Shown piece after piece: positions 17,603-43,261 of a stretch of 56,830 nt of DNA. Source of the DNA: a virus (taxonomy: Duplodnaviria; Caudoviricetes); the IMG/VR virus record IMGVR_UViG_3300025872_000066, positions 1 through 56,830 of that record; one strand, 5' to 3'. Under the pieces are notes generated by a model, which was not told where the DNA came from, made no database searches, and saw only the letters and a list, made by a program, of their open reading frames with translations. Both the position numbers and the translations under genes were made by a program. How positions within the stretch are numbered: position 1 is the first letter of the stretch; each line of letters starts with the position of its first letter.

Positions 17603-18304
17603 GAGGCGGCGCCGATACTGCTCCGGTGTACACTGCCGCCAACGGCCTCGGCCGCAAGCCGTTGTCGGGCCTCGGGTTAGGTGTCCGCTACGGTTTGGAT
17701 GCCGGATCGGCCATCGTCCGGCCTGCCGCTGTGGTGCGGCTGGTTCTCTGTGGTGTGCGGTGGTGCCCGGGCGGCGGCGGCGGTCGCGGCCGGGTCGCGT
17801 GGGCCGTGCATTGCCCCTCGGCCTCCCTCCCTCCCGGCCGCGTGGACCAGGCGGCGAGCGTCGCGGGCGGTGCGTCGGCCTGGTGCCGGGCGTCGCGGGC
17901 GTGTGCGGTGCGGCAGGTCTTTGTAGCGTCGGGCGTCTGCCATTCCCCGGGGCCGTGCGCGTCCGCTCGGGCCCATGCTGTTGGATCGTCACCGCGGCCG
18001 CGGATCACCCGCGGCCGTTGGCTGGCTCCATCGGTCCTCCCTTGGTTAGTGGTGCGGCCGGATCGCGACCGCCGGTTGTGGTGTACGGTAGCCGCCGGGG
18101 TTGGCTGTCCCCCGGCGGCGTGTGGCGCCGCTGCCGGTTGCAAGCCGGAGCGGCGGATGCGGCCTGACGGCTGGCCGGGGTCGCGGTGCGCGCTACCCTC
18201 GCCCGGTGCCGTACCCGTGTCGGGTTCGCCCCTGCCGGGGCTGTGGCCGTGTGCGGTTGCCCGGGCGGCGGCGCGTGGTCGCTGCCTGCCGCCCGGGCTT
18301 GCCC

Positions 18305-18979: not shown

Positions 18980-19028
18980 GGTATCGGTCCTCCGTTGGTT
19001 GTGCCGGTGTGTCAGCACCGGTGAGGGG

Positions 19029-19058
19029 ATTGTAAGGCAGTCCCCGGGGGCGTGTCAA
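19029..19058 (-). promoter_or_regulatory. sigma70-type promoter
   Basis: TTGACA-N18-TACAAT on the minus strand, 50 nt upstream of the 18979 start. Confidence 0.75.
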
Positions 19059-19089
19059 GTACATCGTCCCCCGGGGCTGTGTGACTGTA

Positions 19090-19302
19090 TCAAACCTGCC
19101 GCATGGTACGGGTGATCACCTGCCCGTTATCCGCAGTGTACCGGGCGTGGAGCGTCGTTCCACGGCGGCGGCCGACAACCTGCCAGCGGGCTGCCGTCAC
19201 TCGGACGGCGGCGTCGATGTTCATCACCCGATGGCGGTGCATGTCAGTGACCACCCGGCCGCGAGGGCCGCGGTAATCGGCGGTGAGTTCAACTGTCCAC
19301 AT
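19090..19302 (-). CDS. small hypothetical protein
   Basis: ATG 19302 with AGGAG RBS; 70 aa MWTVELTADY... Confidence 0.65.
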   Translation of the reverse strand: MWTVELTADYRGPRGRVVTDMHRHRVMNIDAAVRVTAARWQVVGRRRGTTLHARYTADNGQVITRTMRQV

Positions 19303-19379
19303 AGGGCAGTCTCCTGGATGGGGAAGGAATGAAGCCGGAGCCGCCCCCGTGCGGCGTGGCACGGGGGCGGGTGCCGGAC

Positions 19380-19583
19380 TCACGCCTTGACGAAGGCGGT
19401 GAGGCCGACCTTGACAACCTGCCCGTCGACCGTGATCGGCGTCGGCTGGTTGCCGTGGGTGCTGGCGACGATCTTCGTCTTCCCGGTGGACGAGAGCGGC
19501 GGGTTCGCGTTCACCGGGATTCGGACGACCAGCGTCGCGGGCTGCGTCTTGGTGGCGGGTTCCAGGGTGTAGGTGGCGGACAT
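19380..19583 (-). CDS. small conserved protein (S.[ST]GKT..VAST.GN motif)
   Basis: 67 aa, PLSSTGKTKIVASTHGN; GGAG RBS. Confidence 0.75.
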   Translation of the reverse strand: MSATYTLEPATKTQPATLVVRIPVNANPPLSSTGKTKIVASTHGNQPTPITVDGQVVKVGLTAFVKA

Positions 19584-19801
19584 GGTAGGGCTCCGTTGGT
19601 TGCCCGGGTCGCTGGGCGGCGGGCGGGCCGTTCGTCGGCTCGCCACCTACTAGCCGGGACCGGGGCCGCGAGATTTTCCGGTTTTTTGGCGGCGCCGGTC
19701 CCGGCTTATTAAGTCGGCGGTTCGCGCCGCCGTCGCGGCCGGTTTTCCGGCCGTTTTCCCCTGGTTTTCCCGCTGAAAACAGGGGTTTTCCCAGTGTAGA
19801 C

Positions 19802-19838
19802 TGTACGGCTGTTCACCTCCCCGGTGGACGGCCGTACA
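19802..19838. promoter_or_regulatory. tandem palindromic operator-like boxes in the divergent control region
   Basis: TGTAC-GGCT-GTTCA (19802-19815) and TGGAC-GGCC-GTACA (19825-19838). Confidence 0.55.
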
Positions 19839-29976: not shown

Positions 29977-30415
29977 TGGCGAACTCCTCCGACAGATCCA
30001 CCAGCCGCTTCTTCTCTACGAAGCGGTAGACCGCCATCTGCTGGTCGCGCTCTGGCATGCCGGCGATGGCGTCCTGGAGGTGGTCGATGGCGTCTTCATG
30101 GGCGAACGCCGCCTCGGCATCTTCCAGGGAGATCCGCTCCCCAGGCGTACGGGTCAGCCGCCTGATCGACTTTAGCATCGCGTTCAGGATAGCCCGGGCG
30201 AAATACTTCTTGGGGTAGGGCAACTTCGCCGGGTCGTACGTGCGGGCGGCACGGCACAGGGCCAGGAACCCCTCGCCCTCTAGGTCCGGGATGTACAGCG
30301 ACCGCTGCCAGCCAGGCCGGTTCTGGACGAAGTACCTGGCCACCTGCGTGACCATCTCTGAGTATTCAGCGACGAGCTGCTGTTGCCGCTTGGAGAGCCG
30401 TGATCGCCCGCTCAT
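29504..30415 (-). CDS. phage-encoded sigma-70 family factor (regions 2 and 4) with an unusual C-terminal extension
   Basis: DLEGEGFLALCRAARTYDP (region 2); LQDAIAGMPERDQQ...RF (region 4). Confidence 0.8.
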   Translation of the reverse strand: MSGRSRLSKRQQQLVAEYSEMVTQVARYFVQNRPGWQRSLYIPDLEGEGFLALCRAARTYDPAKLPYPKKYFARAILNAMLKSIRRLTRTPGERISLEDAEAAFAHEDAIDHLQDAIAGMPERDQQMAVYRFVEKKRLVDLSEEFAINIRTAALASRRLARTISLRLGIPAESPETERERPTHCRSRPSDLSTASPASSPAPPGAASQSAGSSSRQRAARKHAGPAHAPTPAESGKRPCQAGPSSTRKAGSRGSGCAASGKRSSRGLAAKSAHAQTQRTKPTGGKTTCLRGGPGPGRGSKTRP

Positions 30416-30566
30416 GTCGTTCCAACTGGACCTGGGTCTGATGCACCAGTTCCGGGAGCCCTTCCATGGCATGTGCGATCATCGTCACCTTCGCGTGCAT
30501 GCTCATGGCCCAGGGAACCACCGCCACCAAGACGGTGATGCCTATCAGTACCTGGTCAGTCGTCAT
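30366..30566 (-). CDS. small membrane protein (TM plus coiled coil)
   Basis: VLIGITVLVAVVPWA hydrophobic segment; C-terminal HERAITAL. Confidence 0.65.
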   Translation of the reverse strand: MTTDQVLIGITVLVAVVPWAMSMHAKVTMIAHAMEGLPELVHQTQVQLERHERAITALQAATAARR

Positions 30567-30741
30567 CAATCCCCTCCGCGATCAGCTCTAGCAAACCGCC
30601 GGCCGCCTCGTCCGGCAACGAACCTGCCCGTACGTCGGCCATGATCTTTCTCACGGCAGACCGCCACTGACCAGGGGGGAATTGGTAGATCCACGTGTGC
30701 CCAAAACCCTGGGCCTTCACCCGGACTATGGTTTTGGGCAT
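30556..30741 (-). CDS. hypothetical protein
   Basis: Fills the gap between coupled genes; start uncertain. Confidence 0.55.
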   Translation of the reverse strand: MPKTIVRVKAQGFGHTWIYQFPPGQWRSAVRKIMADVRAGSLPDEAAGGLLELIAEGIDDD

Positions 30742-30959
30742 CGTCCATCGGGGCATGCTGCCCTCTCCGTGCAACTGCAGTCCGTCCAATGCTGTCCATC
30801 TCCCGTGCGAACCTTGCCGGTGCCACTGCACTTCACGCACTTGGGGTCGGCAGGCTTGGGCGGAGCGGGGGATGGGCTCGCCTGCTCGGCATCCAGCGCA
30901 GCGTGGATGGCGATGACGGCAACGTAGTGCGGGGTGTACTCGTTCCAGTAGAGCGGCAT
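30726..30959 (-). CDS. small protein with hydrophobic N-segment and DnaJ-type CxxCxGxG Zn finger
   Basis: CVKCSGTGKV...CSC, C-terminal CPDGRCP. Confidence 0.7.
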   Translation of the reverse strand: MPLYWNEYTPHYVAVIAIHAALDAEQASPSPAPPKPADPKCVKCSGTGKVRTGDGQHWTDCSCTERAACPDGRCPKP

Positions 30960-31897
30960 CAGATTCTCCCTATGCTACCCAGGTCAGGCAGCGGGCGGGC
31001 AGGGTAGCCCTGGACGTCGGAGTACGCCCAGATGTCTTCGCTCTCCACGCACGTGGCGTAGCCGGCATCGTCAGTGACGATCATGCCGGGGATCTGCTCG
31101 GGGTAGATCGATGGCCAGTCCTTGACCGGCTGGTTCCACCGCCCCCAGCTATTGGCTATGAACCAGACCCGGAACGGCCAGAACTCCTTTGTGTCGTCAT
31201 AGCCCACGGTGGCCATATCATGGGCCCATCCCGGGCTGACACGCGGGTGGATGTTCTTGCTGCTTGGCCTGTCGGACCAGGCTGCCATCTGCCCAGAGTG
31301 GATGCCGTACCCGTTGAACAGGGCATCCATGGCATCGTCCATGGTGCGGACAAGGGCGATGGTCCCCACCTTGTTGCGGTTGCACAGGTCCAGCACCGCC
31401 TTGGGGACGCCTGTCGATCCCCACCTGGCACCCAGGGCACCGTTGTAGACCGACAGATCCACCACGCCATCGAACTTCTGGCGTGCCAGGAAGCCCGTGT
31501 CGCGCTCAAACCTGGCCGCCCGGGCCGGGCTCATGCCTGCACCGGAGTGACCGCGGGCCCCGTACGTGGGCTCCGTGGCGGTGCGGACAACCCACTCCTC
31601 GGGCTTGCCCTTCAGCAGGATCGACACGGCGCGGCTGCAATCCCTGGCGTTCCGGCTCCCATGTGAGACACAGTCGCCTTCTGTCTGTTTTTCGCTGAAC
31701 GCACCTGGGTCCAGCTGCCGCACGTATCCCCAGAGCATGGCACGCTTCCCTTTCCCACTGCCAGGCGACTGGAACGAACGCAGCGGGTTCGTCTCCAGGA
31801 ACTCCATCTTCTCCCGTGGGCTCGGCACGTAGCCGGCCAGGCCGCCAAACTGGTAGGCCCGCACCAGCTCTTCTGTGCTGTCGAAGTCACCTGGCAT
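30959..31897 (-). CDS. papain-like (C1-type) cysteine peptidase
   Basis: QTEGDCVSHG (Gln, Cys), WAHDMATVGY (His), IANSWG (Asn). Confidence 0.85.
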   Translation of the reverse strand: MPGDFDSTEELVRAYQFGGLAGYVPSPREKMEFLETNPLRSFQSPGSGKGKRAMLWGYVRQLDPGAFSEKQTEGDCVSHGSRNARDCSRAVSILLKGKPEEWVVRTATEPTYGARGHSGAGMSPARAARFERDTGFLARQKFDGVVDLSVYNGALGARWGSTGVPKAVLDLCNRNKVGTIALVRTMDDAMDALFNGYGIHSGQMAAWSDRPSSKNIHPRVSPGWAHDMATVGYDDTKEFWPFRVWFIANSWGRWNQPVKDWPSIYPEQIPGMIVTDDAGYATCVESEDIWAYSDVQGYPARPLPDLGSIGRI

Positions 31898-32300
31898 CAG
31901 CGGCCACCTTCTGCAATGCCTTCACCAGGGCAGCCCGCTTGTTCGTCTCGCCGTCCAGGCCGGTGTTGTCCTTGCCAACCGCGGCCACCAGCTCGTCATC
32001 GATGGCCACATCCAGGCCGATGTACTTGCCGGGGAGGTCAGTCCCCTTGAAGGCCTCGTCCAGGCTTGTGGCATGCACCCGGCGGAACCCATCCATGGTG
32101 GTGATCGACTTGCTGCGGGACACCACATCCGCCATGGCATCGTAGAACGATGACACCCGCGTGCGATCCGCCTTGGTGGCTGGCCGCAGGGCCATGCCCA
32201 CCTTCGACACGGCGGCCGGAGGGGCGGGCTTGGGGACCTCGGGCATGAACGCCCAGATCAGGCCGACTGCCGCCAGGGCCGCGAAGACATGCTTCATCAT
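31887..32300 (-). CDS. signal-anchored/exported protein
   Basis: MMKHVFAALAAVGLIWAF followed by a Pro linker. Confidence 0.7.
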   Translation of the reverse strand: MMKHVFAALAAVGLIWAFMPEVPKPAPPAAVSKVGMALRPATKADRTRVSSFYDAMADVVSRSKSITTMDGFRRVHATSLDEAFKGTDLPGKYIGLDVAIDDELVAAVGKDNTGLDGETNKRAALVKALQKVAADAR

Positions 32301-32509
32301 TTGATTCCCAGCAGGGCCTCCATCAGGGCGTTGCATGCCTGCGTCACCTCGGGCGTGCGGTACGAGTCGCGCACGGCAATGACGTTGCGGATATGGGTCA
32401 GCAGGACAGGGGCCCGGCTTCCCTGAAAGGCCCACTGGACCAGCGGCCAGAGGTACATCACCGCCACGCCAGCGGCTGACAACAGTGCCACAATCTGAGT
32501 TGCCGTCAT
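32297..32509 (-). CDS. small membrane protein
   Basis: N-terminal TM IVALLSAAGVAVMYLWPLV; ATGA overlaps. Confidence 0.7.
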   Translation of the reverse strand: MTATQIVALLSAAGVAVMYLWPLVQWAFQGSRAPVLLTHIRNVIAVRDSYRTPEVTQACNALMEALLGIK

Positions 32510-33393
32510 ACGATCACCCTGCATCCGTTCCCAACCAGGCTGGTTGGATTGATTAAGCCCCACCCGTACATGCCGTCCTTGCCAGGATCCCCGGCATCCG
32601 TGGACGTCTCTCGGAGAATCTTGCTGGCCTTCTGCGCCAGGCCAGCCGTGCCGCACTTGCCGGCGTGCAACGCCAGGACGCCGGCCACAAACGGGGCGGC
32701 CATGCTTGTGCCAGAGAGGGTGGCGTACTTGCCACCCAGCCAGGCGCTGGTGATCTGATAGCCAGGGGCGGCAACGGCAATCTCACGCCCGCGGCAGCTG
32801 AACTCGCAGACCTGCCCATCCTGGTCCACGGCCCCAACGGCGATCACGCTGCCGTATGCCGCTGGGTAGTTGACACTGCCGCCGTCATTCCCAGCGGCGC
32901 AGACAACCGCAATACCCTGCTCTGCGGCATTGGCGCATGCCTCCTGCAGATACGGCACGCTGACAGGGCAGCCCAGGCTCATCACAATGATGTTGGCCTT
33001 GGCTTCAATGGCGGCATGGATCGCCTGCGTCACGTGCTGCAGTGATCCGGCGCCGTTGTTGTTTAGGACCTTGAACGACAGCAGCTCCGCCTGGGGAGCC
33101 ACGCCACGCATCGAACCCCTGCCGGCCAGGACGCCCGCCACATGGGTCCCGTGGCCGTTGGTGTCGTAAGGGCTGCAGTCGGTGGTGAAGTTGCGATGCT
33201 CCTTCACGGCACCCTCCATGGCCGGATGGCCGGGCTCTATTCCGGAATCCAGGATCGCCACCCGCACCCCGGCCCCCTGGTGCTGACTCCAGAGGGCCGG
33301 GATGCCGTACGCGGAGAGCGACCAGTCCACGCCGGAGGAGGGGAGGGCGTGTGCGACTGCCTCTACACGGTACGGTGGGAGGTGGCCGATCAC
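32506..33393 (-). CDS. subtilisin-like (S8) serine protease
   Basis: VAILDSG, NGHGTHVAG, AAGND, SGTSMAAPFVAG; GTG start at 33393 overlapping the upstream stop. Confidence 0.93.
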   Translation of the reverse strand: MIGHLPPYRVEAVAHALPSSGVDWSLSAYGIPALWSQHQGAGVRVAILDSGIEPGHPAMEGAVKEHRNFTTDCSPYDTNGHGTHVAGVLAGRGSMRGVAPQAELLSFKVLNNNGAGSLQHVTQAIHAAIEAKANIIVMSLGCPVSVPYLQEACANAAEQGIAVVCAAGNDGGSVNYPAAYGSVIAVGAVDQDGQVCEFSCRGREIAVAAPGYQITSAWLGGKYATLSGTSMAAPFVAGVLALHAGKCGTAGLAQKASKILRETSTDAGDPGKDGMYGWGLINPTSLVGNGCRVIV

Positions 33394-33716
33394 TTCTGGT
33401 TGCGCCTGGCGATGAAGACCTGGATGAGCGTCGAAACGATGGGCGCGACCACCGTCAGGAGAATCGGAATCGGGATCCCGTACTCCGCCTGGGCAGTGGC
33501 CATGACCTCGTCCTGCTCCTCGGCCGACAGGGCCTGGGCCTGGAACAGCGGGAAGGTTTCGATCACCGGCAGGACCGCCTTGGCGATCAGGTAAACGATC
33601 TCCAGCTTCTGCGAGAGGCTGAGACTGTCGCTCCAGCCGGCGACGATGTTGGCGATCTCCTTCAACACCGTGGTGTTGGACAGGAGCCACCGGACGATCA
33701 GGAACTTGTCAGTCAT
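33390..33716 (-). CDS. membrane protein, holin-like candidate
   Basis: Hydrophobic segments and a basic C-terminus (IARRNQK); AAGGAG RBS. Confidence 0.55.
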   Translation of the reverse strand: MTDKFLIVRWLLSNTTVLKEIANIVAGWSDSLSLSQKLEIVYLIAKAVLPVIETFPLFQAQALSAEEQDEVMATAQAEYGIPIPILLTVVAPIVSTLIQVFIARRNQK

Positions 33717-34104
33717 TTAGGGGCTCCTTGCGCCGTTCACAGGCAATAGCGACCACCGCATGGCCGGCGATGTCCATGAGGGTCTTCTGTCTAGTAATTG
33801 TCTCCAGCGGCCCCCTTAGCCGGCGGGTTTTCTCTCCGATCCTGGCCGTCTGGTACTGCCAGGCCGGGATGCCGTCCTGCTCCACGCCCAGGGCGTTTTC
33901 CAGGGGGTCTTCCTTGCACCCGTAATAGCTCCGCTTCCTGGTCAGGAGGCGGTACAGCTCGTCGCAAATCTCCCGGTAGGGGTCACCACTGATACTCCCT
34001 GCTGGCTCCGACAATGCGTCCGTATTCGGCCCAAAAGACGCTGTGATGGGGGTCTTCTTCCCGATCACACAGATACGCGGTTCTTGCATGTGCCCACTCC
34101 TCAC
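33709..34104 (-). CDS. DUF1599/Nmad1-like all-helical nucleotide-modification-associated protein
   Basis: RKRSYYG...RIGEK..RL...TLMDIAGHAV; true start uncertain because of overlap with the upstream gene. Confidence 0.6.
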   Translation of the reverse strand: MRSGHMQEPRICVIGKKTPITASFGPNTDALSEPAGSISGDPYREICDELYRLLTRKRSYYGCKEDPLENALGVEQDGIPAWQYQTARIGEKTRRLRGPLETITRQKTLMDIAGHAVVAIACERRKEPLND

Positions 34105-34321
34105 AGCATGTGTCTAAAAAACTATCCCGTGTCAGCGTGTTACTAATGACAATGAGCCCACGCATCTCATCCTCGTTGAACTCAAAGTACCCCAGCATCC
34201 CCGGCAGCTTGGCCGGGGGTCGCAGGTAGACTCTCACCGGATACGGCAGTGGGAAGTTCGCCTGTGCCCAGCGCCGAAAGCGCTTGAGCAGCCGCGGCCT
34301 CCAGTCTGGCGTGGAACTCAT
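33983..34321 (-). CDS. metallopeptidase-like protein (EEWAH variant of HExxH)
   Basis: DTCCEEWAHA...HHSVFW..YG. Confidence 0.55.
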   Translation of the reverse strand: MSSTPDWRPRLLKRFRRWAQANFPLPYPVRVYLRPPAKLPGMLGYFEFNEDEMRGLIVISNTLTRDSFLDTCCEEWAHARTAYLCDREEDPHHSVFWAEYGRIVGASREYQW

Positions 34322-34616
34322 ACAACCTCTCCAGCGGCAGCGTGATCAGCCACGGCTCCCTTGCCTTCTTGCTCAGGACCACCGGAACCAGGCCGCCTGA
34401 ATCCGCCTCGGCCTGCTTCATCCAGGACCGGATCGATTCCCGCTCTACGAACTTGACCTCCCAGTGGACGCCTTCCAGCTCCACCTCCAGGTCGGCCGAG
34501 TCGGCGCCCCCCTTGAATTGCACGCCACGCCTGGCCGGCAAGCGGATTGCCTGGGACACCGCTTTTGCGGCCAATCGCTCGCCCCTTTTCCCCTTCTCCC
34601 TCTGGCTACGGCCCAT
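34182..34616 (-). CDS. PD-(D/E)XK Holliday junction resolvase-like protein
   Basis: SQREKGKRGER, SADL, HWEVK, PWLITL. Confidence 0.8.
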   Translation of the reverse strand: MGRSQREKGKRGERLAAKAVSQAIRLPARRGVQFKGGADSADLEVELEGVHWEVKFVERESIRSWMKQAEADSGGLVPVVLSKKAREPWLITLPLERLYEFHARLEAAAAQALSALGTGELPTAVSGESLPATPGQAAGDAGVL

Positions 34617-34881
34617 GCTTGGTCCTCACAAACAGCGGCCCATCGGGCCCCACGTACGCCCCCAGGGTGTTGAAGCTCAGGTACTCCACGGCCTCGTCCT
34701 CAGACAGGCCGTCCTCCATCAGCTTCTGGACGCAGGCATTCAGGTCGTACACGGCCACTACCGGGTGGTGGTGGTTGCATGTGTAGCCAATCAGGGCGTC
34801 TTCAAACCCGTCCGCCAGGAGAGCCTCGGGGTTCTCCTCGGCCAGGTCAGCGAACAAGTCTTCCGGTGGGATGGCGATCAT
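34606..34881 (-). CDS. conserved phage protein (ADG.D.A.IG...EA.EY..FN..GAY.G family)
   Basis: LADGFEDALIG, VAVYD, EAVEYLSFNTLGAYVG. Confidence 0.8.
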   Translation of the reverse strand: MIAIPPEDLFADLAEENPEALLADGFEDALIGYTCNHHHPVVAVYDLNACVQKLMEDGLSEDEAVEYLSFNTLGAYVGPDGPLFVRTKHGP

Positions 34882-35285
34882 GGCTTCCTTGCCCTGGTCA
34901 GGTTGATCTCACGCTCGTTCAGATACCACTCGTCCGGCGGCTCGGGCTCGTAGCCCAGGTGCCGCTTCATCCGCAGGCTGGCGAGGTACTCCGGGTCGTA
35001 GTTCTCTGGGTCCGACTGCTCCTTAGCCCACAGCAGTGTGCTTTTGTACAGCGGCGGGAAGTTCCCGGCAACCAAACCGTCATGTAAAACGTCATGGCAC
35101 CGGCCGCAGAGCCGGAGGTAATTCCGGACGTCATGCCTTCGCCCGGCTCCACCCTGAAGGTGATGCACCTCCAGCTGGCGGCGGCCATCAGACTCCGGCC
35201 ACCAGCACACGGCACAGCAGCGGTGGTACTGCACCCAATCCGCGATGGCGGCCCGCTCGGCCTTAGTCATCCGTGCCATGTACAT
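34878..35285 (-). CDS. HNH endonuclease
   Basis: CAVC...LEVHH...NYLRLCGRCHDVLH. Confidence 0.8.
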   Translation of the reverse strand: MYMARMTKAERAAIADWVQYHRCCAVCWWPESDGRRQLEVHHLQGGAGRRHDVRNYLRLCGRCHDVLHDGLVAGNFPPLYKSTLLWAKEQSDPENYDPEYLASLRMKRHLGYEPEPPDEWYLNEREINLTRARKP

Positions 35286-35567
35286 TCCTCAGCGCAGACC
35301 CATTCCCTGCTGAGAGGCAAGGGGTTGACTCTCAGTTGGCCCAGTGGCCACCAATGGCTGCCTTATCGTTAGGCTCTCAGCTATCGACCGGGACGCATGG
35401 GGGGTGCTGGATCTAGTACCAGCGCGTTGCCCGGCTTTCGCGCAACCATTAGCCAACTTGTGCGGACTAGCCGCTCCTGCATAGGCAGGCGTTTGTTTAT
35501 GCTCGCGCTTTTGGTTAACAGCCGGCGGGTGCTGCGAGAAGATGAACCGCCTCGGGGGAACTGTGTA

Positions 35568-35756
35568 CTACCTAGGGCCGGTGTCGGCAACAAAAGTCAT
35601 GTGCGGACACTGGGCCGGAGTTTTATTGACGAGGTTCTCTAGCTCAGTAAGCCTCGCCCGCATGGACTCTGCGGTGTGTCTGTACTGTGCAATGACGTCC
35701 TCTAGCTGGACGATCCGATGCAGGAGGAAAAGAGCGTCTTCACTGCTCATATGCAC
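35568..35756 (-). CDS. small coiled-coil protein
   Basis: 62 aa helical ORF coupled to the upstream gene. Confidence 0.5.
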   Translation of the reverse strand: MHMSSEDALFLLHRIVQLEDVIAQYRHTAESMRARLTELENLVNKTPAQCPHMTFVADTGPR

Positions 35757-35968
35757 CTCTTAACTGGCACCTCTGGGTGCGGAATGTCGTACATTTCGTT
35801 GCCCATGACTCTCACTTCTGCGGAGTCAACGTGTACTACCTCGCCTGTGTCGAACCGCTGTACTACCCAGACGCTGTTCAGGTGCGGCCCGTAGTCGATC
35901 AGCACCAGGGCGAACCCTTCACCGAGAGGCGTGGCAACCCAGATCGGCGGGTTTAACTGGAGCATCAT
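35747..35968 (-). CDS. conserved small phage protein (QLNPPI.V.TP.G...IDYG family)
   Basis: MLQLNPPIWVATPLGEG...IDYG...WVV. Confidence 0.75.
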   Translation of the reverse strand: MMLQLNPPIWVATPLGEGFALVLIDYGPHLNSVWVVQRFDTGEVVHVDSAEVRVMGNEMYDIPHPEVPVKRCI

Positions 35969-36301
35969 TTGGCCATCATCCACAGGCCGATGTTGGCTAC
36001 TGCATAGGACGCCCAAGTAATAAAACCAGGCACGTTTTTCTTACATAACTGCTCGCAAGCTACGTAGGCGTAGATGCACATGGTCAATAGGATCAGGTGT
36101 CTGCTCATGCTGTCAACTGTCACTTTCCGCCAGTTTGTGGGCGTTCGCGTTATGCGGCAGATAAGCCGTAGAACACGCTGGTCCGCTTTTCTGATTTAAG
36201 CTGAAGCCCCTGCGCCGCATCGACTTCCACCGCACGGCCCGGAACGCCTTGGGACGTTACCCAGCAAGCCGGTCGTTTATACGGGTCTGCAGAAACACTG
36301 G

Positions 36302-36586
36302 TTATGCGAATGAAAAATGCCGCTTACCAGATTGCGGCGACGGTGTTGAGCCCCGTCGGTTCGCCTTGCCCGCCCGGCTCGGAGGCTCGGCCATACGTCG
36401 CATCACCCACCGACAATAGGCAAGGAGTGGCGGCACCGGGAGATCATCCCGGCCTCGTACTCTCGGCGCGCTTTCCGATTTCCTTAGTCGCGTCACTTGC
36501 CGCCGTCGCTCCATCAAATGTCGTTCACGCATAACCACGCGATACAGCGGACTCGCGAGAGCGTCGGTTGGTTTGTTCATGGTCAT
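36302..36586 (-). CDS. cassette C ORF (Arg-rich; may be non-coding)
   Basis: ATG inside attC3, stop TAA inside the GCATAAC box. Confidence 0.35.
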   Translation of the reverse strand: MTMNKPTDALASPLYRVVMRERHLMERRRQVTRLRKSESAPRVRGRDDLPVPPLLAYCRWVMRRMAEPPSRAGKANRRGSTPSPQSGKRHFSFA

Positions 36587-36618
36587 AGGTCGCGGGCCGC
36601 TGATCGCTGGCGTTCTAT
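36529..36618 (-). repeat. attC-like site 3
   Basis: ATAGAAC...GATCAGCGG...CCGCTG(T)ATC...GTTATGC with one extra-helical base. Confidence 0.75.
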
Positions 36619-36827
36619 TACTCGCTCCAGCCACACCACGCGCATTGACCAGTAGCAACGACAGGACTCCAGTTCTCTCGCCCTCGCTCGCCGCAGCACG
36701 CATAGCACCGAACAAGAAATAGCCGGCCTTTGCTGTCCCGAAAGTTTGGCGACCGATCCTGCAACGTCATAGAGCCAGCGGATGCAGAAGACGGCTCGGC
36801 ACCGCCCTGCGTGTTATCATCGCTCAT
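36618..36827 (-). CDS. cassette B ORF, small Zn-ribbon protein
   Basis: MSDDNTQGGAEPSSASAGS leader, then RCYAC...REN...CAWCG. Confidence 0.65.
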   Translation of the reverse strand: MSDDNTQGGAEPSSASAGSMTLQDRSPNFRDSKGRLFLVRCYACCGERGRENWSPVVATGQCAWCGWSE

Positions 36828-36858
36828 AGTTCGCCGCCCCTGATCCTTGTCGTTCTCA
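36769..36858 (-). repeat. attC-like site 2
   Basis: TGAGAAC...GATCAG...CTG(C)ATC...GCTCTAT (GTT core mutated); close copy of site 1. Confidence 0.7.
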
Positions 36859-37116
36859 CTGCACCGTTTCGCAGCCTTCTGATGAACCGTTTCGCAGATC
36901 GCCTTCCTCTGGCCGCAAACCCAGATCGCCACTCGTTTCCCACTCTGGACGCAACCTGATGAGCAGCGACAGCAGGATGCCGTAGTCCCCCATGCAGGCG
37001 ATTCGGCCTTCGACCACAACGTATTCCAGCGCGTCGATCTCGGCCTCTGACAGCCCGTGAGAACCAGCGGATGCAGGAGACGGCTCGGCACCGCCCTGCG
37101 TGTTGTCAGTGTTCAT
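36856..37116 (-). CDS. cassette A ORF, hypothetical
   Basis: MNTDNTQGGAEPSPASAGS leader; stop TGA inside TGAGAAC. Confidence 0.65.
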   Translation of the reverse strand: MNTDNTQGGAEPSPASAGSHGLSEAEIDALEYVVVEGRIACMGDYGILLSLLIRLRPEWETSGDLGLRPEEGDLRNGSSEGCETVQ

Positions 37117-37147
37117 CGCTCGCCGCTCCTGATCCTTGTCGGTCGGT
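37058..37147 (-). repeat. attC-like site 1
   Basis: GATCAGGAG...CTCCTG(C)ATC...GTTCTCA; the R'' AAC is degenerate (ACC). Confidence 0.7.
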
Positions 37148-37374
37148 CATGTCTTGTCCTCCTCGTTGGCCCACAGCAGCGCAGCCTGCTCATCCCAGCA
37201 GTCAGCACGCCCAATGTCGAACCAGTGGGGGAAATGCCGCAGCACAGCCCTCGCCTCCTGGCGTACCTCTCGGCGGATCCCCTTGATGCCGCCCTCCACG
37301 TAGACGTTGGAGAGCCGCACCAGGAAATTGCGGGCGAGGAGGACCGCCAGCGTTCGTTCGCATGGAAGGGTCAT
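37147..37374 (-). CDS. conserved small protein (MT.P.ERT.AV...FL...LRHFP family)
   Basis: MTLPCERTLAV, ARAVLRHFP. Confidence 0.7.
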   Translation of the reverse strand: MTLPCERTLAVLLARNFLVRLSNVYVEGGIKGIRREVRQEARAVLRHFPHWFDIGRADCWDEQAALLWANEEDKT

Positions 37375-37637
37375 GGCCAATTCGGGTACAGCAGCACGCC
37401 GCACCGCGTCTCCTGGTCCAGGACCTCAACCGCAGCCGTCCGCGGGAACTCGCCGGAGATCAGGGCACAGATGCCATCAAACGGCATCTTCGCCAGCATC
37501 TCCGAATGCTCGTCGCAGTAGGTCTGGATCGCCGCGTGATCGCAGGCGAACCCAGGATCGCCATCGCCGCAGTTGACCCACACCCGCAGCGTGAACCGCG
37601 GCGTGCTGACGGCCACCATGTTTTCCCTAATCTTCAT
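37371..37637 (-). CDS. hypothetical protein
   Basis: ATG 37637 after AGGAGG; ATGA overlap. Confidence 0.65.
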   Translation of the reverse strand: MKIRENMVAVSTPRFTLRVWVNCGDGDPGFACDHAAIQTYCDEHSEMLAKMPFDGICALISGEFPRTAAVEVLDQETRCGVLLYPNWP

Positions 37638-37696
37638 CGCGGACCTCCTTGCTATCGCGGACCACCAACTCTTCCCCTGGGACGTCTCCCCAGGAG

Positions 37697-38287
37697 TCAA
37701 CCAGGATCTTTCGGAGCCTTGCGACCTCGGCCTCTAGGCGTCGGATCGCACTTGTCAGCCGGCGGTTCTTCGCCTCGGAAGCCGCCAACGTCTCCTTCCA
37801 CCCACTGCAGGGCGTCTTGCCTGAACAGGATGCTGCACAGCTCGTCTGCGTGTCGCAGGTGCTTGCTGGGTGCGACGAGCGTGGGCACGTTGAAACCACG
37901 CATGGAGTCCCAGACGGTCTGCTCGGTCCAGCTTTCGTCCTGGTCAAGGACAGAGAGCCAGACCCAGGCTCCGGTGTGCTGGGAGATGTAGATCCAGGCG
38001 AATGGTTTTCCACGGCTGAGTCCGTTCAGGTCGTCAACGAATACTGTGGGGTAAGGGAAGTCATCCGGCCCTGTGAACTGCAGGCTGCGAACCTTGATCT
38101 CCAGGGACACGGCCGCCACGGCGTCTGGCGTCGGGCAGAAGTCCTTCTTGGGATTGTGGTCTGGCAGTACGAGCTTGACCCCGTGCGCTATAGCGAGCCC
38201 ACGGTCGCGCTGCGTCTCCACCCACGCCTTCTCCGCCTTGTGGGCAATCTTTAAGACGCTCAGAAAGCGGTCTTTCGTCCAGGCCAT
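37697..38287 (-). CDS. PD-(D/E)XK-type nuclease-like protein
   Basis: AE...TPD...LEIKVRS; GGAGG RBS. Confidence 0.6.
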   Translation of the reverse strand: MAWTKDRFLSVLKIAHKAEKAWVETQRDRGLAIAHGVKLVLPDHNPKKDFCPTPDAVAAVSLEIKVRSLQFTGPDDFPYPTVFVDDLNGLSRGKPFAWIYISQHTGAWVWLSVLDQDESWTEQTVWDSMRGFNVPTLVAPSKHLRHADELCSILFRQDALQWVEGDVGGFRGEEPPADKCDPTPRGRGRKAPKDPG

Positions 38288-38774
38288 TGCCCCTCCATGT
38301 GCTGCGAACGTCCGCGGCTCTCGCCGCCGCTTCCTGCGGATGGACGTCCTCTTCAGTCAGGTCTTCCCACAGCTCCGTGCTGAGGGGCTCCGTGCGCCGA
38401 ATGGTCGATGCCATGCGGGCACACTCTTCAACAGCGTCAACCGTGACGGCGAAGGCCGCTGCGATCTCGGCGTACGTCCGTTCCGGGTAATCCAGAGACA
38501 GGACCATCAAACGCTTGGTGGTAGGGAGCCCGTGCCGCTTCAGCAGCATGGTCATCCGCTTGCCGACTTCCTCGCTCAGCTCCAGCTCCCCCCACACCTT
38601 CCGCGGCGGCTCCTGGTTGATCACCACCCGGCGATACAGCACTGGCGCAACGGCCAGAGGAACGCCAGCCGAACCAACCCTTAATTCGTTGCCACCAAGT
38701 TTGCACGGCCTCATCCTTCTCCTCCTCCATGGGTTCAAACGGGAACACTTCATCCAGGTGAAACAGGTCAGCAA
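38061..38774 (-). CDS. HTH-containing hypothetical protein; boundaries uncertain
   Basis: TYAEIAAAFAVTVDAV HTH-like segment. The ORF 3' end overlaps the next gene by more than 200 nt. Confidence 0.45.
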   Translation of the reverse strand: MLTCFTWMKCSRLNPWRRRRMRPCKLGGNELRVGSAGVPLAVAPVLYRRVVINQEPPRKVWGELELSEEVGKRMTMLLKRHGLPTTKRLMVLSLDYPERTYAEIAAAFAVTVDAVEECARMASTIRRTEPLSTELWEDLTEEDVHPQEAAARAADVRSTWRGNGLDERPLSERLKDCPQGGEGVGGDAARPWARYSARGQARTARPQSQEGLLPDARRRGGRVPGDQGSQPAVHRAG

Positions 38775-38782
38775 TCTGTTCT

Positions 38783-40297
38783 TCAGTTACGGACAAGAGC
38801 ACGCCGTCTAGCCTTCTCTTTGGCGAAGAAGGAGCGCTGCCATCCGGCGAGGCTGCGGTTTCTGAGGGCCCATTCGATGTAGTCATCGTCAACCTCTCCC
38901 ATCGTTCGACCGGCGTACCGCCCACGCAGCGGCACCCGGTACTCCGAGATGTCTTTCTTGCGACCGTCCAGCGAGACGTCGCGGCCATGCACCTTGCCGC
39001 CGGCCTGGCCTTCCATGCCCTTCAGCCCGGCTTCGATCAGCTTGGCCTTGCGGACGTCATCCGCGGCCTGCTCCAGCAGGTCAGCCGGATCCTCGGCCTC
39101 AGCGTCATCATCGGCTGCACGCCTGCGGGCCTCGGCCAGGACCTCACGTGGCGTTCCTTCCTCAGCGAACATGTCCACGCCCGTGCGGATGGAGTGGTTC
39201 TCCACGCTGTCGGTGACGTCAACAATCTTGAACCAGGGCTTCTCGCTCGCAGCGATGGCGGCAATCCGTGCCGCGGGCGTGTTCTCCGCACCATCCACCA
39301 CACCAGGCAGCGGGCGAGTGGCACGCCCCCAAATCTGCAGGGCCAACGTCCGGCTCTTCGTCGGCCGGAACATGAAGATCGTCTGCGTCAGCGGAGCGTC
39401 GAAGCCCATGGTGGCGATCTGACAGTTGCACAGCAGGTCGATCTCGCCGGCCCGGTACTTGTTGATGATCCGGTTCCGCTCGTCCTGGGTCTGCAGGTAC
39501 TCGTTGCCGCAGATCCACGCGGCCCGCATGCCGTAGTTCTTCTCAGCCATCTCAGCGAGAGCGCGGGCGCTGGCCACGCCGGGGAGGAAAGCGATGGCCG
39601 CGCCAACGCGCTCCCGCTGGATGGTGAGGCAGAACTGATGAAGCCTGGAGCTGACGCCGATCACCATCTCCAGGTCGGCAGCGGAGTAGTCGCCTCCGGT
39701 CACCTTGACCTTGCTCAGGTCCAGGTCGGCACACTGAACGACACGGGCTCGGGGCGGCACGCACCAGCCGTCCTTGATACCCTGGGCCAGGCCGTAGTCG
39801 AACGCCACGTGCTGGTAGAACTTCATCAGCGGCTTGCCGTCCATCCGGAACGGCGTGGCCGTGAAGCCGATGACGATGGCTCCGTTGGCCTGGAACTCCC
39901 GGAGCATCTCCAGAAACGGCTCTGAGAACTGCGTGTGGGCCTCGTCTACGATGACCAGGCGAACGCCCAGAAGCCTCTTGTAACGCTTCTCTTTGCCGGC
40001 CAGGAGCGTGTTTCGGCAGGCCACCGTGACGCGGTTGCCGCCCGCCCAGGAGCCGGCCATCTCAACGTCCGTGTACTCCTCCGTGATTCGGTCGGCCGTG
40101 TCAGCCGCCTGCCAGACCAGCTCCCGCATGGGGGCGATGATCAGGATCTTGCTGTTGAACAGCATCTTGGCGAGCAGCGAGAAGATCACCGTCTTCCCGG
40201 CGCCCGTGAACAGGACACACAGGATGGCCGTGAAACCCTTCGCCGTGGCGTCCAGAATCGCATCGCAGCACTGCTGCTGGTAATCCCTTGCCTGCAT
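38783..40297 (-). CDS. superfamily 2 (DExH) helicase
   Basis: RDYQ, TGAGKT, VDEAH, GFTATP, TMGFDAP, QIWGRATR; GGAGG RBS. Confidence 0.92.
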   Translation of the reverse strand: MQARDYQQQCCDAILDATAKGFTAILCVLFTGAGKTVIFSLLAKMLFNSKILIIAPMRELVWQAADTADRITEEYTDVEMAGSWAGGNRVTVACRNTLLAGKEKRYKRLLGVRLVIVDEAHTQFSEPFLEMLREFQANGAIVIGFTATPFRMDGKPLMKFYQHVAFDYGLAQGIKDGWCVPPRARVVQCADLDLSKVKVTGGDYSAADLEMVIGVSSRLHQFCLTIQRERVGAAIAFLPGVASARALAEMAEKNYGMRAAWICGNEYLQTQDERNRIINKYRAGEIDLLCNCQIATMGFDAPLTQTIFMFRPTKSRTLALQIWGRATRPLPGVVDGAENTPAARIAAIAASEKPWFKIVDVTDSVENHSIRTGVDMFAEEGTPREVLAEARRRAADDDAEAEDPADLLEQAADDVRKAKLIEAGLKGMEGQAGGKVHGRDVSLDGRKKDISEYRVPLRGRYAGRTMGEVDDDYIEWALRNRSLAGWQRSFFAKEKARRRALVRN

Positions 40298-40405
40298 GTT
40301 GCCTCCTCCTTCGGCGTGGGCCTCGGGGCGGCGTCCTGCCAGCCCCGGGCCCGCATCCATGTCTCGCCGTCCACCCTCCTGGTGAACCCTTCCCTGAGTG
40401 CCCTC

Positions 40406-40735
40406 CTAAAACGGGGACGAGGCCTCCGCCTTCTCCCGCGAACCAAGCAGCGTCAGCTCGCGGACGTCCAGTCCACAGGCCTGACGCTTCACGCCATCCT
40501 TCTCGTACTCCCGGCACTTCAACTGGCCGGTCACCGCCACCTGCTTGCCGCGGGTCAGGTACTCAGCCACCTTCCCGGGACGCCACAGGTCGCAGTTCAA
40601 AAACAGCACCTCACCGTCCTTGCGGCCGTTGACGGCGATGGCAAACGCGGCCACCTCCGACTCACCCACCTCGCGGACCTCGGCATCCCTGGTCAGGTTG
40701 CCGGTGAACGAACAGCTATTCAGCGACGCCATCAC
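40406..40735 (-). CDS. ssb: single-stranded DNA-binding protein
   Basis: GNLTRDAE, YLTRGKQVAVTGQL, C-terminal PF. Confidence 0.9.
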   Translation of the reverse strand: MMASLNSCSFTGNLTRDAEVREVGESEVAAFAIAVNGRKDGEVLFLNCDLWRPGKVAEYLTRGKQVAVTGQLKCREYEKDGVKRQACGLDVRELTLLGSREKAEASSPF

Positions 40736-41385
40736 GCACCTCCAAACTTGGTATTCACGTACTCCGAAACACGGTCGTAGACCGACTGGTCGCAGACCTT
40801 CTCACTCACACGCAGCTTGACCAGGTCCAGGATGGGCTTGGCCGCATCCCGGTCCTTGGCCTTGTCGATGGCCTTGCGGGCCTTGTCTTCGATCTCCAGG
40901 CCACGGCTCAGGGCCTGCGGGCTGGACGCCTTCGTCCGCGTGACGGGCATGGCCTTCTGGGCATCGTCATCGTCCTCAGCCCACGCACCTACCAGGCCCA
41001 GGAGCAGGTACTTCTTGGCGTACGTGTACGCCGAACCCAGGCTCTGCATGTCCTGCCGCTGGTTCCCCTCCTTGTCCGTGCCCAGGAACACCGGGCACAG
41101 GCTGGTGACGAACTCGCCGCTGTTGTGCCGCAGCGTTCCAACGGCAATCCACTCGCCGCCAACGCGGGTCAGGCAGACCTGCGGCAGGATGAAGCCAGCC
41201 TCATTCAGCGGCTCACGCAATGCCTCACAGATGTCGGAGTACCGCATGTAGCGGTACTTGCCGAACTTGTTGTCGCCGCCCTTTTCGACGGCCGGGAACT
41301 TCGACTGGGCCTTGACGAGCGCCGCCACCAACTTGGTGGTGTCGGGGCTCGTTGTCAGACCTGGCAATCCATGGTCAATCATCAT
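40732..41385 (-). CDS. ERF-family ssDNA annealing protein
   Basis: ALVKAQ, QSLGSAYTYAKKY, EDDDDAQ. Confidence 0.88.
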   Translation of the reverse strand: MMIDHGLPGLTTSPDTTKLVAALVKAQSKFPAVEKGGDNKFGKYRYMRYSDICEALREPLNEAGFILPQVCLTRVGGEWIAVGTLRHNSGEFVTSLCPVFLGTDKEGNQRQDMQSLGSAYTYAKKYLLLGLVGAWAEDDDDAQKAMPVTRTKASSPQALSRGLEIEDKARKAIDKAKDRDAAKPILDLVKLRVSEKVCDQSVYDRVSEYVNTKFGGA

Positions 41386-42263
41386 GCCTCTCCTCCTCTG
41401 AGAAACGCTGGGAACTCCAGCTCACACTCCTCGTCATCCTCCGGGCTGCTGTAGACGCCCAGCTCGCGTCGCAGCCGGATCTGATCCAACGTGACCCGGA
41501 TCTGCTCGCGGGCCTGCTCCACCAGCTCCTCTGGCAGCGTGAACACACGCACGCCATGAGGCTTGCTGGTCTGGGCAAAGACAAACTTCAGCGAGTGGTG
41601 ATCCCACCCGCACGCCATAGCAGCGTCCACGTACCAGGCAGCTTGCCACAGGTAGCCGTAGTCAACGCAACTGCGCCAGAGCTGCTTCCAGTCGCTACTG
41701 GTGGTCTTGAAGTCCCACAGGTAGTCGGGCGTTACGCCGTCCGCGAGGCCCTTCCGCTGGTGGCCGGCGGCATCGACATGCCGGAAGGCAGCCTGCATGT
41801 CCGTTGTGGCTTCCAGGATCGCAGCAGCGGCCGGGTGCCGTGTGACGTTCCTGATGATCCGCTGCAGCCTCCACCAGTCAGCGGCAGTGAGGATCGACTT
41901 ATCAAGGTTGTCGGCCACCCAGTCGGTGTACGCCTTTCCACGGCGGGCCCCGTTGGAAAGCACTTCCTCCGGCACCACCGCCAGATGGTCCTCCAGAGCC
42001 ACCCCCGCCACCACCATGGGGATCGCCCGGTCAACCAGCGATCCAAAGTCCGTGGCGGCGTTACCGCTGAACAGTTGTTCCCCATTATCCAGGGCCTCCT
42101 GTGCCAGCGGCCCGCCACGGAAGACGGCGTGAGCGTACGACCGCGTGAAGTGTCCATCGTCACGGCGGTACGCCGCGTCGATTTCGGCCTGGTTCAGCAG
42201 GGCCTTGCCGGAATCAAGCTGCGCAATGCAGCCAGGCGTATAACTACCAGTGGCTGTGACCAA
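41382..42263 (-). CDS. RecE/exonuclease VIII-like PD-(D/E)XK nuclease
   Basis: FGSLVD, KGLADG, WDFKTT, YGYLWQAAWY; adjacent to ERF. Confidence 0.8.
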   Translation of the reverse strand: MVTATGSYTPGCIAQLDSGKALLNQAEIDAAYRRDDGHFTRSYAHAVFRGGPLAQEALDNGEQLFSGNAATDFGSLVDRAIPMVVAGVALEDHLAVVPEEVLSNGARRGKAYTDWVADNLDKSILTAADWWRLQRIIRNVTRHPAAAAILEATTDMQAAFRHVDAAGHQRKGLADGVTPDYLWDFKTTSSDWKQLWRSCVDYGYLWQAAWYVDAAMACGWDHHSLKFVFAQTSKPHGVRVFTLPEELVEQAREQIRVTLDQIRLRRELGVYSSPEDDEECELEFPAFLRGGEA

Positions 42264-42439
42264 GTGTCGCCTCCCTCAGCAGGACAAGAGCCTTCTGAGG
42301 GTGGCCGATGACCAGCATGGTCACGGCCGCCGCCACGCAAGTGGCGGCAATGGCAAGGGATCGCAGGCAGCTAGACAACTGAGCTAGTTGCCCGCGCCCC
42401 TTGACAAACCTCAGAAATGCGGAATTGTCGGGGTACATC

Positions 42440-43261
42440 ATGCTACTCACTGACTTTGCGAAACGCTACGCCAACCGCGTAGGGGCTTCTCCAGGCTATT
42501 TGGAGCAGCTTTTGGTGTTCACCAAGCGCCTGGACTGGCAGGTGGAGGAGATCACCACCGAAATGGTGGACTCCTACTTGACTGCCGCTCTGGGGGGTTT
42601 GAGCCCCAATACAGTCGCCAATCACCGCAGACTCCTCACAACCCTCATGCGCGAAGCTAATCGCACCGGCCTGAACACGTGTATAGCGAATGGATTCCGC
42701 CGCGTCAAGGTGCCTAGGCCGATCCCCAGGGCGCTGTCGCATGCGGAGATTCGTCAGGCAGTAGAAGCTGCCCGGCAGACGCCCGGTCATTTCCGTGACC
42801 TCCAAAAGTCCGACTTCCTTGTCGCCTGGTTCTTGACCGCGTATTCGCTAGGCCTGCGTGCGGGCGACCTAGTCGAAATCCGGTGGGATCAAGTACGTGG
42901 GCGGAAAATCTATCTGGGCCAATCGAAGACGTCAACTCCCCATGTCTCGCTTTTTACTGACGAGGCGTTGTGCGCGTGTAAGGCCCTTCCGAAGCGCACG
43001 CGGATCTTTGGGGACTTCGCTGCGCTCAACACAATCCAGCAGTGGGTGAAGGCCTGCATGGTGAGCGCAGGCCTGGATGCGTCAACGAAGTTCCTGCGAC
43101 GCTCAGCCGCGACATATGCCAAGGTCCAGGGCAAGTCGCCCAAGGCGGTGCTGGGGCATTTGACCGAAGGCCTAGCCGAAAGGCACTACGTCGATCAGCT
43201 GCTGTACGAAGAGGAGACTGGCCTGAACCAGGAGCCCCTGCCGTCCGTGATGGGCGCCTAG
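42440..43261 (+). CDS. tyrosine recombinase/integrase
   Basis: GLRAGDL (R), SKT (K), KFLRRS (HxxR variant), VLGH, RHY (Y). Confidence 0.88.
   Translation: MLLTDFAKRYANRVGASPGYLEQLLVFTKRLDWQVEEITTEMVDSYLTAALGGLSPNTVANHRRLLTTLMREANRTGLNTCIANGFRRVKVPRPIPRALSHAEIRQAVEAARQTPGHFRDLQKSDFLVAWFLTAYSLGLRAGDLVEIRWDQVRGRKIYLGQSKTSTPHVSLFTDEALCACKALPKRTRIFGDFAALNTIQQWVKACMVSAGLDASTKFLRRSAATYAKVQGKSPKAVLGHLTEGLAERHYVDQLLYEEETGLNQEPLPSVMGA

Follow-up and report, generated by a model that had tools for sequence, protein, structure and literature searches.

The window analysed here, the whole 56,830-bp stretch of the IMG/VR virus record IMGVR_UViG_3300025872_000066, is a complete tailed-phage genome (the record has an estimated completeness of 100%) of freshwater origin, in which a portal, a large terminase, a major head protein and a helicase are encoded. 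Between positions 36141 and 37141, it contains an array of three small genes, each associated with an imperfect palindrome that resembles attC, the recombination site of integron gene cassettes, and the array ends in a stretch that resembles the integron attI site (Table 1). The minus strand is the coding strand of all genes around the array. Integrons are best known from bacteria, where they serve as platforms of gene capture.

The three palindromes lie within 630 nucleotides (nt). Copies 1 and 2 form an 85-nt direct repeat with 88% identity, and copy 3 shows only a loose sequence similarity to them, yet has the same stem. This stem, GAT-CAG ... CTG-N-ATC, is common to all three copies and contains one bulged base, and the inner stem differs between copies but still pairs through compensated changes. 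The initial annotation of this DNA had reported three imperfect palindromes at these places, each with one unpaired base in its stem, and both claims are borne out by the repeat, by the common stem and by the matches to a covariance model, R1, for which the three window copies were among the 33 training sequences. After these three copies, the next best R1 match in the 56.8-kb window scored 12 bits (E 0.28). A 19-nt core common to the elements occurs four times in the window, three of these occurrences being the elements, as compared with an expectation of 0.32; since none of 100 shuffled sequences reached four, chance can be excluded. A scan of positions 35000-38500 with Rfam, which contains no attC model, gave nothing relevant. 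With at least two clustered attC sites and no integron integrase gene (intI) in the genome, the array corresponds to a CALIN, defined in the main text of Qi et al. (2023, Front Microbiol 14:1091391, PMC9892861) as a cluster of at least two attC sites lacking an integron integrase nearby.

The boxes at the two ends of each cassette are complementary to each other. In cassette 1, GTTCTCAC (36852-36859) and GTGAGAAC (37057-37064) match at 8/8 positions; in cassette 2, GTTCTAT (36612-36618) and ATAGAGC (36769-36775) match at 6/7; and in cassette 3, GTTATGCG and CGCATAAC (36528-36535) match at 8/8. These are the figures that the initial annotation had given, and its statement that stop codons fall in the boxes was likewise found to be correct, with the stops of the three minus-strand open reading frames (ORFs) located at 36856-36858, 36618-20 and 36302-04. 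Its start for the third unit, position 36149, had to be moved, since GTTATGCG is also present at 36301-36308, and it is this copy that bounds the ORF and forms the breakpoint in relatives; the unit therefore starts at 36301/36302. Each window cassette contains a complete bottom-strand gene, with its stop codon in the first bases of the cassette and its ribosome-binding site (RBS) and start codon in the cassette's own attC. The three cassette proteins had no match in PHROGs or Pfam, nor did five neighbouring ORFs in PHROGs.

Table 1. Predicted features of the cassette array and its borders, in window positions.
Feature	Position	Strand	Remarks
attI-like array-end site	36141..36301 (approximate)	+	Top strand ends ...CTGCAGAAACACTG-G|TT; junction with the first cassette
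Cassette 3	36302..36612	+ (top-strand coordinates)	Starts with TTATGCG, includes its own attC and ends on the G of G|TT
Cassette 2	36613..36852	+ (top-strand coordinates)	Boundaries by consensus crossover position
Cassette 1	36853..37141	+ (top-strand coordinates)	Shared by L012
Predicted attC of cassette 3 (copy 3)	36525..36623	-	R1 60 bits; long-loop and short-loop orthologues elsewhere
Predicted attC of cassette 2 (copy 2)	36765..36863	-	R1 101 bits; 88% direct repeat of copy 1
Predicted attC of cassette 1 (copy 1)	37054..37152	-	R1 100.8 bits; outer box degenerate, ACC for AAC, at the phage backbone
ORF3, 94 aa	36302..36586	-	No known family; ATG in the long attC loop; stop TAA in the CGCATAAC box
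ORF2, 69 aa, CxxC...CxxC	36618..36827	-	No known family; Shine-Dalgarno sequence, ATG and 19-aa leader inside attC
ORF1, 86 aa	36856..37116	-	No known family; AGGAG and ATG within attC; stop TGA in GTGAGAAC
Backbone resumes	from 37142		Top-strand terms
Backbone gene, 85 aa	37147..37404	-	Reads into the array; stop overlaps the degenerate box of copy 1

The window elements belong to a wider family. A strict pattern derived from copies 1 and 2 matched 31 viral contigs, and R1 detected 107 copies in 31 of 32 viral loci. Counting the window, there are 94 distinct element sequences in arrays of 1 to 8, including 75 long elements (at least 90 nt) and 19 short ones (58-67 nt), the latter being plain hairpins without a start signal. 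Apart from the relative L002 and one common cassette, these elements are the only nucleotide similarity between window positions 34000-39000 and these viral contigs. In an alignment of 33 copies, the stem pair 30-72 is GC in 24 copies, AU in 5 and CG in 2, and the pair 31-71 is GC in 25 and UA in 5. The covariation score of this alignment is 0.113, as compared with 0.059 in shuffles, and 0/500 shuffles reached the observed value. The AAC/GTT pairs 10-92 and 12-90 are invariant in 33/33 aligned copies; the window exceptions, each at one end, are ACC in copy 1 and GCT in copy 2. In sequencing data from three freshwater or lake-water runs, depth peaks on the elements show a high abundance of the family. 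Two element copies are present in the complete, terminally repeated 204-kb genome of a jumbo phage (L010/G001) that carries no tyrosine recombinase.

The geometry of the family was compared with that of known attC sites. In gene sense, the phage element has AAC on its 5' arm and the bulged bases on its 3' arm, G-T-CTCCTG-C-ATCC, which contains a bulged T, six paired bases and a bulged C; the bulges are at positions 16 and 23, counted from the outer end of the 7-nt box. According to the passages on site structure in Nivina et al. (2016, PMC5027507), the attC bottom strand carries 5'-AAC on the arm opposite the extrahelical bases and is cleaved between A and C; the first extrahelical base, usually G, is at position 16, the last, a T, is at 23 or 24, and a 6-bp stem lies between them. 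The matched lengths of 58-101 nt are inside the range of 57-141 bp, with a variable terminal loop, published there. Because of this placement of the AAC and the bulges on the two arms, the gene-sense (window minus) strand is taken as the attC bottom strand and the window plus strand as the top strand. The gene-sense order is then the stop codon of the upstream gene in an AAC-ended box, a 5-nt spacer, the 5' arm with AGGAG, the loop with ATG and about 15 codons, the 3' arm with the bulged T and C, a 4-nt spacer, GTT with a variable box, and the body of the in-frame ORF.

Start signals are often placed inside the hairpin in the long form: an in-frame ATG is present there in 37 of 52 units behind long elements and in 1 of 13 behind short ones. 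The clearest demonstration that the loop ATG is a real start comes from a C-5 methylase of L008: its Pfam domain begins at residue 21, immediately behind the leader encoded by attC, and no other in-frame start occurs until 74 nt into the unit. All 61 distinct phage cassette ORFs are on the attC bottom strand (R1 sense), and on this strand 4 of 10 tested ORFs had Pfam matches, namely a C-5 methylase (153 bits), an N6_N4 methylase (76 bits), an HNH protein (48 bits) and a DUF551 protein (40 bits). Many cassettes of L005, L009, L016, L020, L022, L026 and L030 are paralogues of two small-protein families, one DUF551-like and ending in ...HWMPLPAPP..K, the other containing LTDEEREAI and ending in ...LRGLLER(T/L)(K/G). 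In these two families the conserved C-termini and stops run into recurrent AAC boxes, so that the box type follows the protein family.

The complementarity of unit ends was examined across the phage arrays. A set of 66 adjacent, non-redundant element pairs was used. On average, the 7 nt that follow GTT at the unit start and the 7 nt that precede AAC at the unit end were complementary at 5.0/7 positions, as compared with 3.24/7 for the two boxes of one element and 3.21 +/- 0.15 for permuted pairs, and 0/5000 permutations reached the observed value. The same test on bacterial integron arrays gave 5.63 vs 4.04 permuted. It is a signature of integron cassettes that their first bases derive from their own attC, and the R'/R'' complementarity that the initial annotation had invoked as a cassette hallmark in the window is seen across this set. 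Since more than a dozen box types obey the rule, the complementarity cannot stem from one inherited event.

Comparison with relatives shows where the units break. In metagenome contigs, at least four further contexts contain cassette 3, with identities of 96-97.5%. In L131, window positions 36301-36614 are found at 97.5% identity between two different flanks. In L129, L132 and L136, homology starts exactly at GTTATGCG, and upstream of it there is a short attC in L129, a long attC of another type in L132 and the attI-like site in L136. Past cassette 3's own attC, all five sequences diverge directly after G|TT, and contigs from the freshwater or lake-water runs X6, X4 and X2 also start their match at 36301. 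The orthologous attC of L132 contains a compensatory stem change. Cassette 1 is found in L012 (window 36849-37144, 296 nt, 85.5%) with nothing else nearby in common; this similarity ends within 3-4 nt of the predicted ends of the cassette, and the upstream context differs up to AAC. No relative carrying cassette 2 was found. The initial annotation had proposed such a comparison as a check for breaks exactly at G|TT, and the outcome is favourable, since cassette 3 breaks at this point and cassette 1 within about 4 nt of it. These recurrences in other contexts argue for recent movement of at least cassettes 1 and 3.

The attC of cassette 3 also varies in its loop. A comparison of L129, L132 and L136 with the window and L131 shows orthologues with a loop of ~45 nt that carries the ATG of the gene and others without this loop, and joints of read contigs within window 36550-36596 touch the same region. 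Since the short form would start at an ATG inside the GTTATGCG box, gain or loss of the loop would change the N-terminus of the protein. Two further sets of read-contig joints, 36858>37060 and 36616>37057-37059, were set aside, their sides being only 20-22 nt long.

At the other end of the array, the window and 8 other viral loci have the gene-sense motif AAC|CAGTGTTT(C/A)TGC(A/G)GACCC past their last cassette, a position equivalent to that of attI, and in all but one of ten occurrences there is no further element downstream of it. In L136, the same array-end site is joined to the same cassette (cassette 3), and in the bacterial integron L119, a similar AAC|CATTGTTTC is located between the last cassette and intI. 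From these sequence comparisons, we infer that the array-end site would function as attI. In the window, GTTATGCG forms a direct repeat (36149-36156 and 36301-36308) that flanks the 152-nt attI-like stretch, and in related phages this region contains a pair of direct repeats resembling GCATA(R)(Y)ACGCC. Such repeats recall the accessory integrase-binding repeats of attI1.

The same type of attC is also present in bacteria. A degenerate 22-mer of the 3' arm matched 68 bacterial or archaeal contigs, and R1 confirmed 21 of these, mostly from Planctomycetota, with some from Acidobacteriota, Nitrospiraceae and Verrucomicrobia, and many of them multi-copy. The 47 others, including all four Brevundimonas loci, were unconfirmed by R1 and were treated as chance matches. 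An intI gene above the cut-off of the integron integrase model TIGR02249 was present in 4 of 5 checked R1-positive genomes vs 0 of 14 control genomes. In L118 (Acidobacteriota), an array of 17 R1 matches adjoins intI at 12147-19831, and the 12 kb before it contain no match, and in L119 (Planctomycetota) the matches are just upstream of intI. The search of bacterial genomes for this attC type next to intI, as suggested in the initial annotation, was thus successful. The Planctomycetota attC sites have the common motif GATCAGCGGC...G-T-CCGCTG-C-ATC, and their stem and both bulges are as in the phage element. When 151 Planctomycetota genomes were scanned with R1, 10 matched; with 27 candidates scored per genome and none found in G014, whose sites are known, this figure is not a prevalence. 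According to part of the text of PMC8352920, attC types are taxon-specific, with separate models for Planctomycetes and Acidobacteria; an 'inverted intI' arrangement is mentioned there as well. Such an arrangement is seen in L118 (G012), where intI (9916-10863) faces the array and runs in the same direction as the cassette genes.

The sedentary chromosomal integrons of Planctomycetota and Acidobacteriota (L119/G014, L121/G015 and L118/G012) share with the phage array the attC type (GATCAGCGGC...CCGCTG-C-ATC with bulged T and C, AAC/GTT boxes), the cassette rule and the relative order of attC, cassette and attI. Unlike the phage array, they have intI adjoining, top-strand genes that end at attC, and no cassette proteins in common with the phage set. 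A first determination of the coding strand of the bacterial arrays by ORF length and GC content at third codon positions was ambiguous, and it was replaced by reading individual cassettes: the cassette ORFs of the three intI-linked arrays examined are on the top strand, with R1 matches antisense to them in L118 and in the intI-adjacent cassettes of L119 and L121. One of ten bacterial cassette ORFs had a weak Pfam match (Hydrolase_4, below its cut-off), and for the 61 phage ORFs a tblastn search revealed no homologue in seven bacterial integron loci (L118, L119, L062, L060, L047, L089 and L099). Since the phage cassettes have bottom-strand genes of typical phage kinds (DUF551, DNA methylases, HNH) and no bacterial homologues in these seven loci, the cassette pool looks phage-specific while sharing the attC type of Planctomycetota integrons. 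The proposal in the initial annotation that the phage samples the cassette pool of its host is therefore not supported. Four contigs from bacterial metagenome-assembled genomes (MAGs), namely L067 and L102 (bin labelled Beijerinckiaceae), L077 and L053, contain phage-grade elements together with phage cassette proteins; R1 scored 78-83 bits on L067, L077 and L102, three of the 21 confirmed contigs, as on phage copies, and the MAG of L067 and L102 had no TIGR02249 integrase above the cut-off. All four are probably phage contigs that were binned with bacteria. The VCR sites of the Vibrio cholerae superintegron are likewise long attC sites with large variable loops, highly alike within their pool, from another sequence family and host; cassette-gene starts are not known from VCR loops.

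Taken together, these results indicate that window 36141-37141 is very probably an integrase-less integron platform, made up of an attI-like site and three cassettes, each with a small gene and its own attC. The central claim of the initial annotation, that integron-type attC sites bound mobile cassettes in a phage genome, is thereby supported. During infection, the attC bottom strand (the coding, minus strand) would fold as single-stranded DNA, and an integron integrase of the host, probably a member of the Planctomycetota, would cut it between A and C of 5'-AAC. Cassettes would be excised as circles and integrate either into the attI-like site or into a different attC, and phages infecting such hosts could exchange accessory genes in this way. 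Transcription of the bottom-strand genes would enter the array from the phage backbone and proceed in the direction of the attI-like site. A long-loop attC, with its AGGAG, ATG and ~19 codons, would double as the translation start region of the gene, and in the mRNA the hairpin would bury the RBS.

Several observations weigh against this assignment. The unpaired spacer is 5 + 4 nt, short of the usual 5-6, the proximal bulged base is C where attC usually has G, and the R boxes depart from RYYYAAC/GTTRRRY beyond AAC/GTT. R1 was built from the phage elements themselves and is not a curated attC model. The fold z-scores of the hairpins against shuffles lie between -2.1 and +1.5 for DNA folds and between -1.4 and +1.1 for RNA folds; of the folding check that the initial annotation had recommended, the pairing of the stems with their bulges stands, whereas a stability above that of shuffles does not. 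Fold energy was therefore dropped as evidence, the hairpins being of ordinary stability, and it is covariation and the comparison of relatives that carry the case. Some relatives do not follow the expected unit boundaries: L133, L135 and L137 have the cassette-3 body with a start box that mismatches the end box, and in L133 and L135 no hairpin follows this body; one body is found behind a long hairpin in L013:2446 and behind a short one in L005:1878; L003 and L009:6578 have the upstream sequence and hairpin in common but not the body; and in some comparisons the break is on the far side of the hairpin. Hairpin-body linkage, assessed with 60-nt and 100-nt flanks, gave only a slight lean to the canonical partner in discordant pairs; with 120-nt flanks no pairs passed, and many of the 'same upstream' pairs were DUF551 paralogues. 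Since this lean is slight, the assignment of hairpins to bodies rests on the polarity of the bulges and on the cassette-3 and cassette-1 comparisons. Besides the site-specific events, near-identical hairpins probably also undergo homologous exchange. The host is probably a member of the Planctomycetota, attC similarity being the one pointer to it. Finally, the window has no match to TIGR02249 at E≤10, and five phage tyrosine recombinases that we tested scored 22-45 bits against cut-offs of 220-335, none of them being integron-integrase-like.

The source of the recombinase therefore has to be considered separately, and since no intI adjoins the array, it does not form a complete integron. The sole tyrosine-recombinase-like ORF of the window (42401-43261, plus strand, 286 aa) is Xer-like and reaches 24.5 bits on PF00589, below the cut-off; it lies ~5 kb from the array on the strand opposite to its neighbours. 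This agrees with the earlier view that the phage's own recombinase is not of the IntI type. The ORF may be a phage integrase for lysogeny or for dimer resolution. It is conceivable but unlikely that the cassettes are real and are moved by this enzyme and its counterparts, rather than by a host IntI. Among 10 other viral records with arrays, 5 indeed have a tyrosine recombinase gene, the integron integrases of archaea are Xer-like, and the five tested ORFs weakly match the NCBIfam model NF040815, whose name ('site-specific tyrosine recombinase/integron integrase') includes the integron integrase. Against this, their scores on the integron integrase cut-offs are far too low, a canonical intI adjoins the same attC type in bacteria, and two complete, terminally repeated genomes, G001 (204 kb) and G002 (61 kb), carry the elements and have no PF00589 match at E≤0.01. 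Since the window has no IntI and these two complete genomes have no recombinase, the most economical reading is that a host IntI would act on the cassettes in trans.

Equally improbable is that the window array is an inert relic, captured once and now immobile. The outer box of copy 1 is ACC instead of AAC, cassette 2 starts with GCT (coding sense) instead of GTT, and the genome has no integrase at hand, all of which would suit a relic; the presence of cassette 3 at 96-97.5% in at least four other contexts and of cassette 1 at 85% in L012, together with the start of the match at 36301 in contigs from three freshwater or lake-water runs, is difficult to reconcile with immobility. It is far less credible still that the repeats are mere mRNA translational hairpins with a duplicated leader, shuffled by homologous recombination without any site-specific step: although the hairpin on the mRNA strand buries AGGAG and holds ATG in its loop, upstream stops precede it by 1-12 nt, a G-U pair legal on the coding strand only is found in 4/33 aligned copies, identities of 88-100% over 75-99 nt would allow homologous exchange, and some breakpoints lie within the hairpin or at its far end, such a view leaves unexplained the complementary unit ends with non-complementary boxes in one hairpin, the start-less short forms, the arrays beside bacterial intI that are antisense to the genes there, and the breaks on G|TT behind unrelated hairpins. 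An mRNA hairpin function may well be an added role of attC, not a rival to it. The hyperplastic regions of T4-type phages also contain repeated promoter/stem-loop junctions, common leaders and small early accessory genes, the junctions there promoting gene shuffling by homologous recombination. Unlike the phage cassettes, the T4-type junctions have no complementary unit ends, AAC/GTT crossover or integrase link.

On the integron platform reading, the gene orientation allows a further proposal, which we put forward as possible but tentative: freshwater phages, probably of Planctomycetota, may keep their own mirror-image cassette pool apart from those of their hosts, with the gene on the bottom strand, the attC loop recruited as RBS, start codon and leader, and an integrase-less attI-like landing pad. 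If this is true, one hairpin would have two roles, serving in single-stranded DNA as the substrate of a borrowed host integrase and in mRNA as a gate that couples each cassette to the previous one, and integron recombination would be a regular engine of phage accessory-gene exchange instead of an occasional capture of host DNA. Arrays in dozens of uncultivated phage genomes, unrelated to each other and 57 kb to 204 kb in size, bear the mark of one attC family, which is abundant in lake metagenomes. Since this family is nearly the sole nucleotide similarity among these genomes, it points to a common phage cassette market run on a host enzyme, with a cargo of methylases, HNH nucleases and DUF551 proteins, together with many small early-region proteins that are unknown. 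The phage early region is a typical place of anti-defence genes. Reversed genes with start signals in attC bear on the origin of cassettes and on the expression of promoterless cassettes away from the integron promoter, and the attC type could serve as a host predictor for uncultivated phages.

This kind of array is already known, since phage attC clusters were reported by Qi et al. (2023, PMC9892861). Their screen of 10,705 phage genomes, as given in the main text, yielded 3 complete integrons, one In0 and 17 CALINs in 21 phages; the CALINs included methyltransferase cassettes and were also found in virulent phages, and IntI1 recombined 5 of 6 phage attC sites. The arrays described here resemble those CALINs in having attC sites without intI, in carrying DNA methyltransferase cassettes and in the proposed action of a bacterial IntI in trans. 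In contrast to the 17 CALINs, which were from isolate genomes, we find one attC family with 107 copies on 31 uncultivated viral contigs and arrays of up to 8, and the present arrays are further set apart by bottom-strand genes, start signals in attC and a conserved attI-like end site. A word search of the main text of PMC9892861, with its supplementary tables outside the search, found no mention of start codons or Planctomycetes. Literature searches yielded Qi et al. (2023) as the only work on attC in phages. In the literature searched, we found no widespread Planctomycetota-type phage attC family, no bottom-strand attC-initiated genes and no integrase-less attI-like site, although the supplements of PMC9892861 may list orientations. 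Integrase-less attC clusters in phages are thus a rare but known route of accessory-gene swapping (2023), and the backwards genes are the difference here.

In the surrounding genome, the GC content of the array (0.59-0.62) is the same as that of its flanks, so that composition gives no signal, and megablast of window 30000-45000 against GenBank phages gave no match and hence no annotated relative. The backbone relative L002 is 93.8% identical across 6115 nt, and its homology ends at window 37140, where it has another gene and no element. Outside the array, the minus strand also encodes a DNA methyltransferase-like protein of the backbone at 5815-7212 (phrog_2675, 56 bits) and a protease-like protein at 32509-33690 (phrog_3677, 256 bits).

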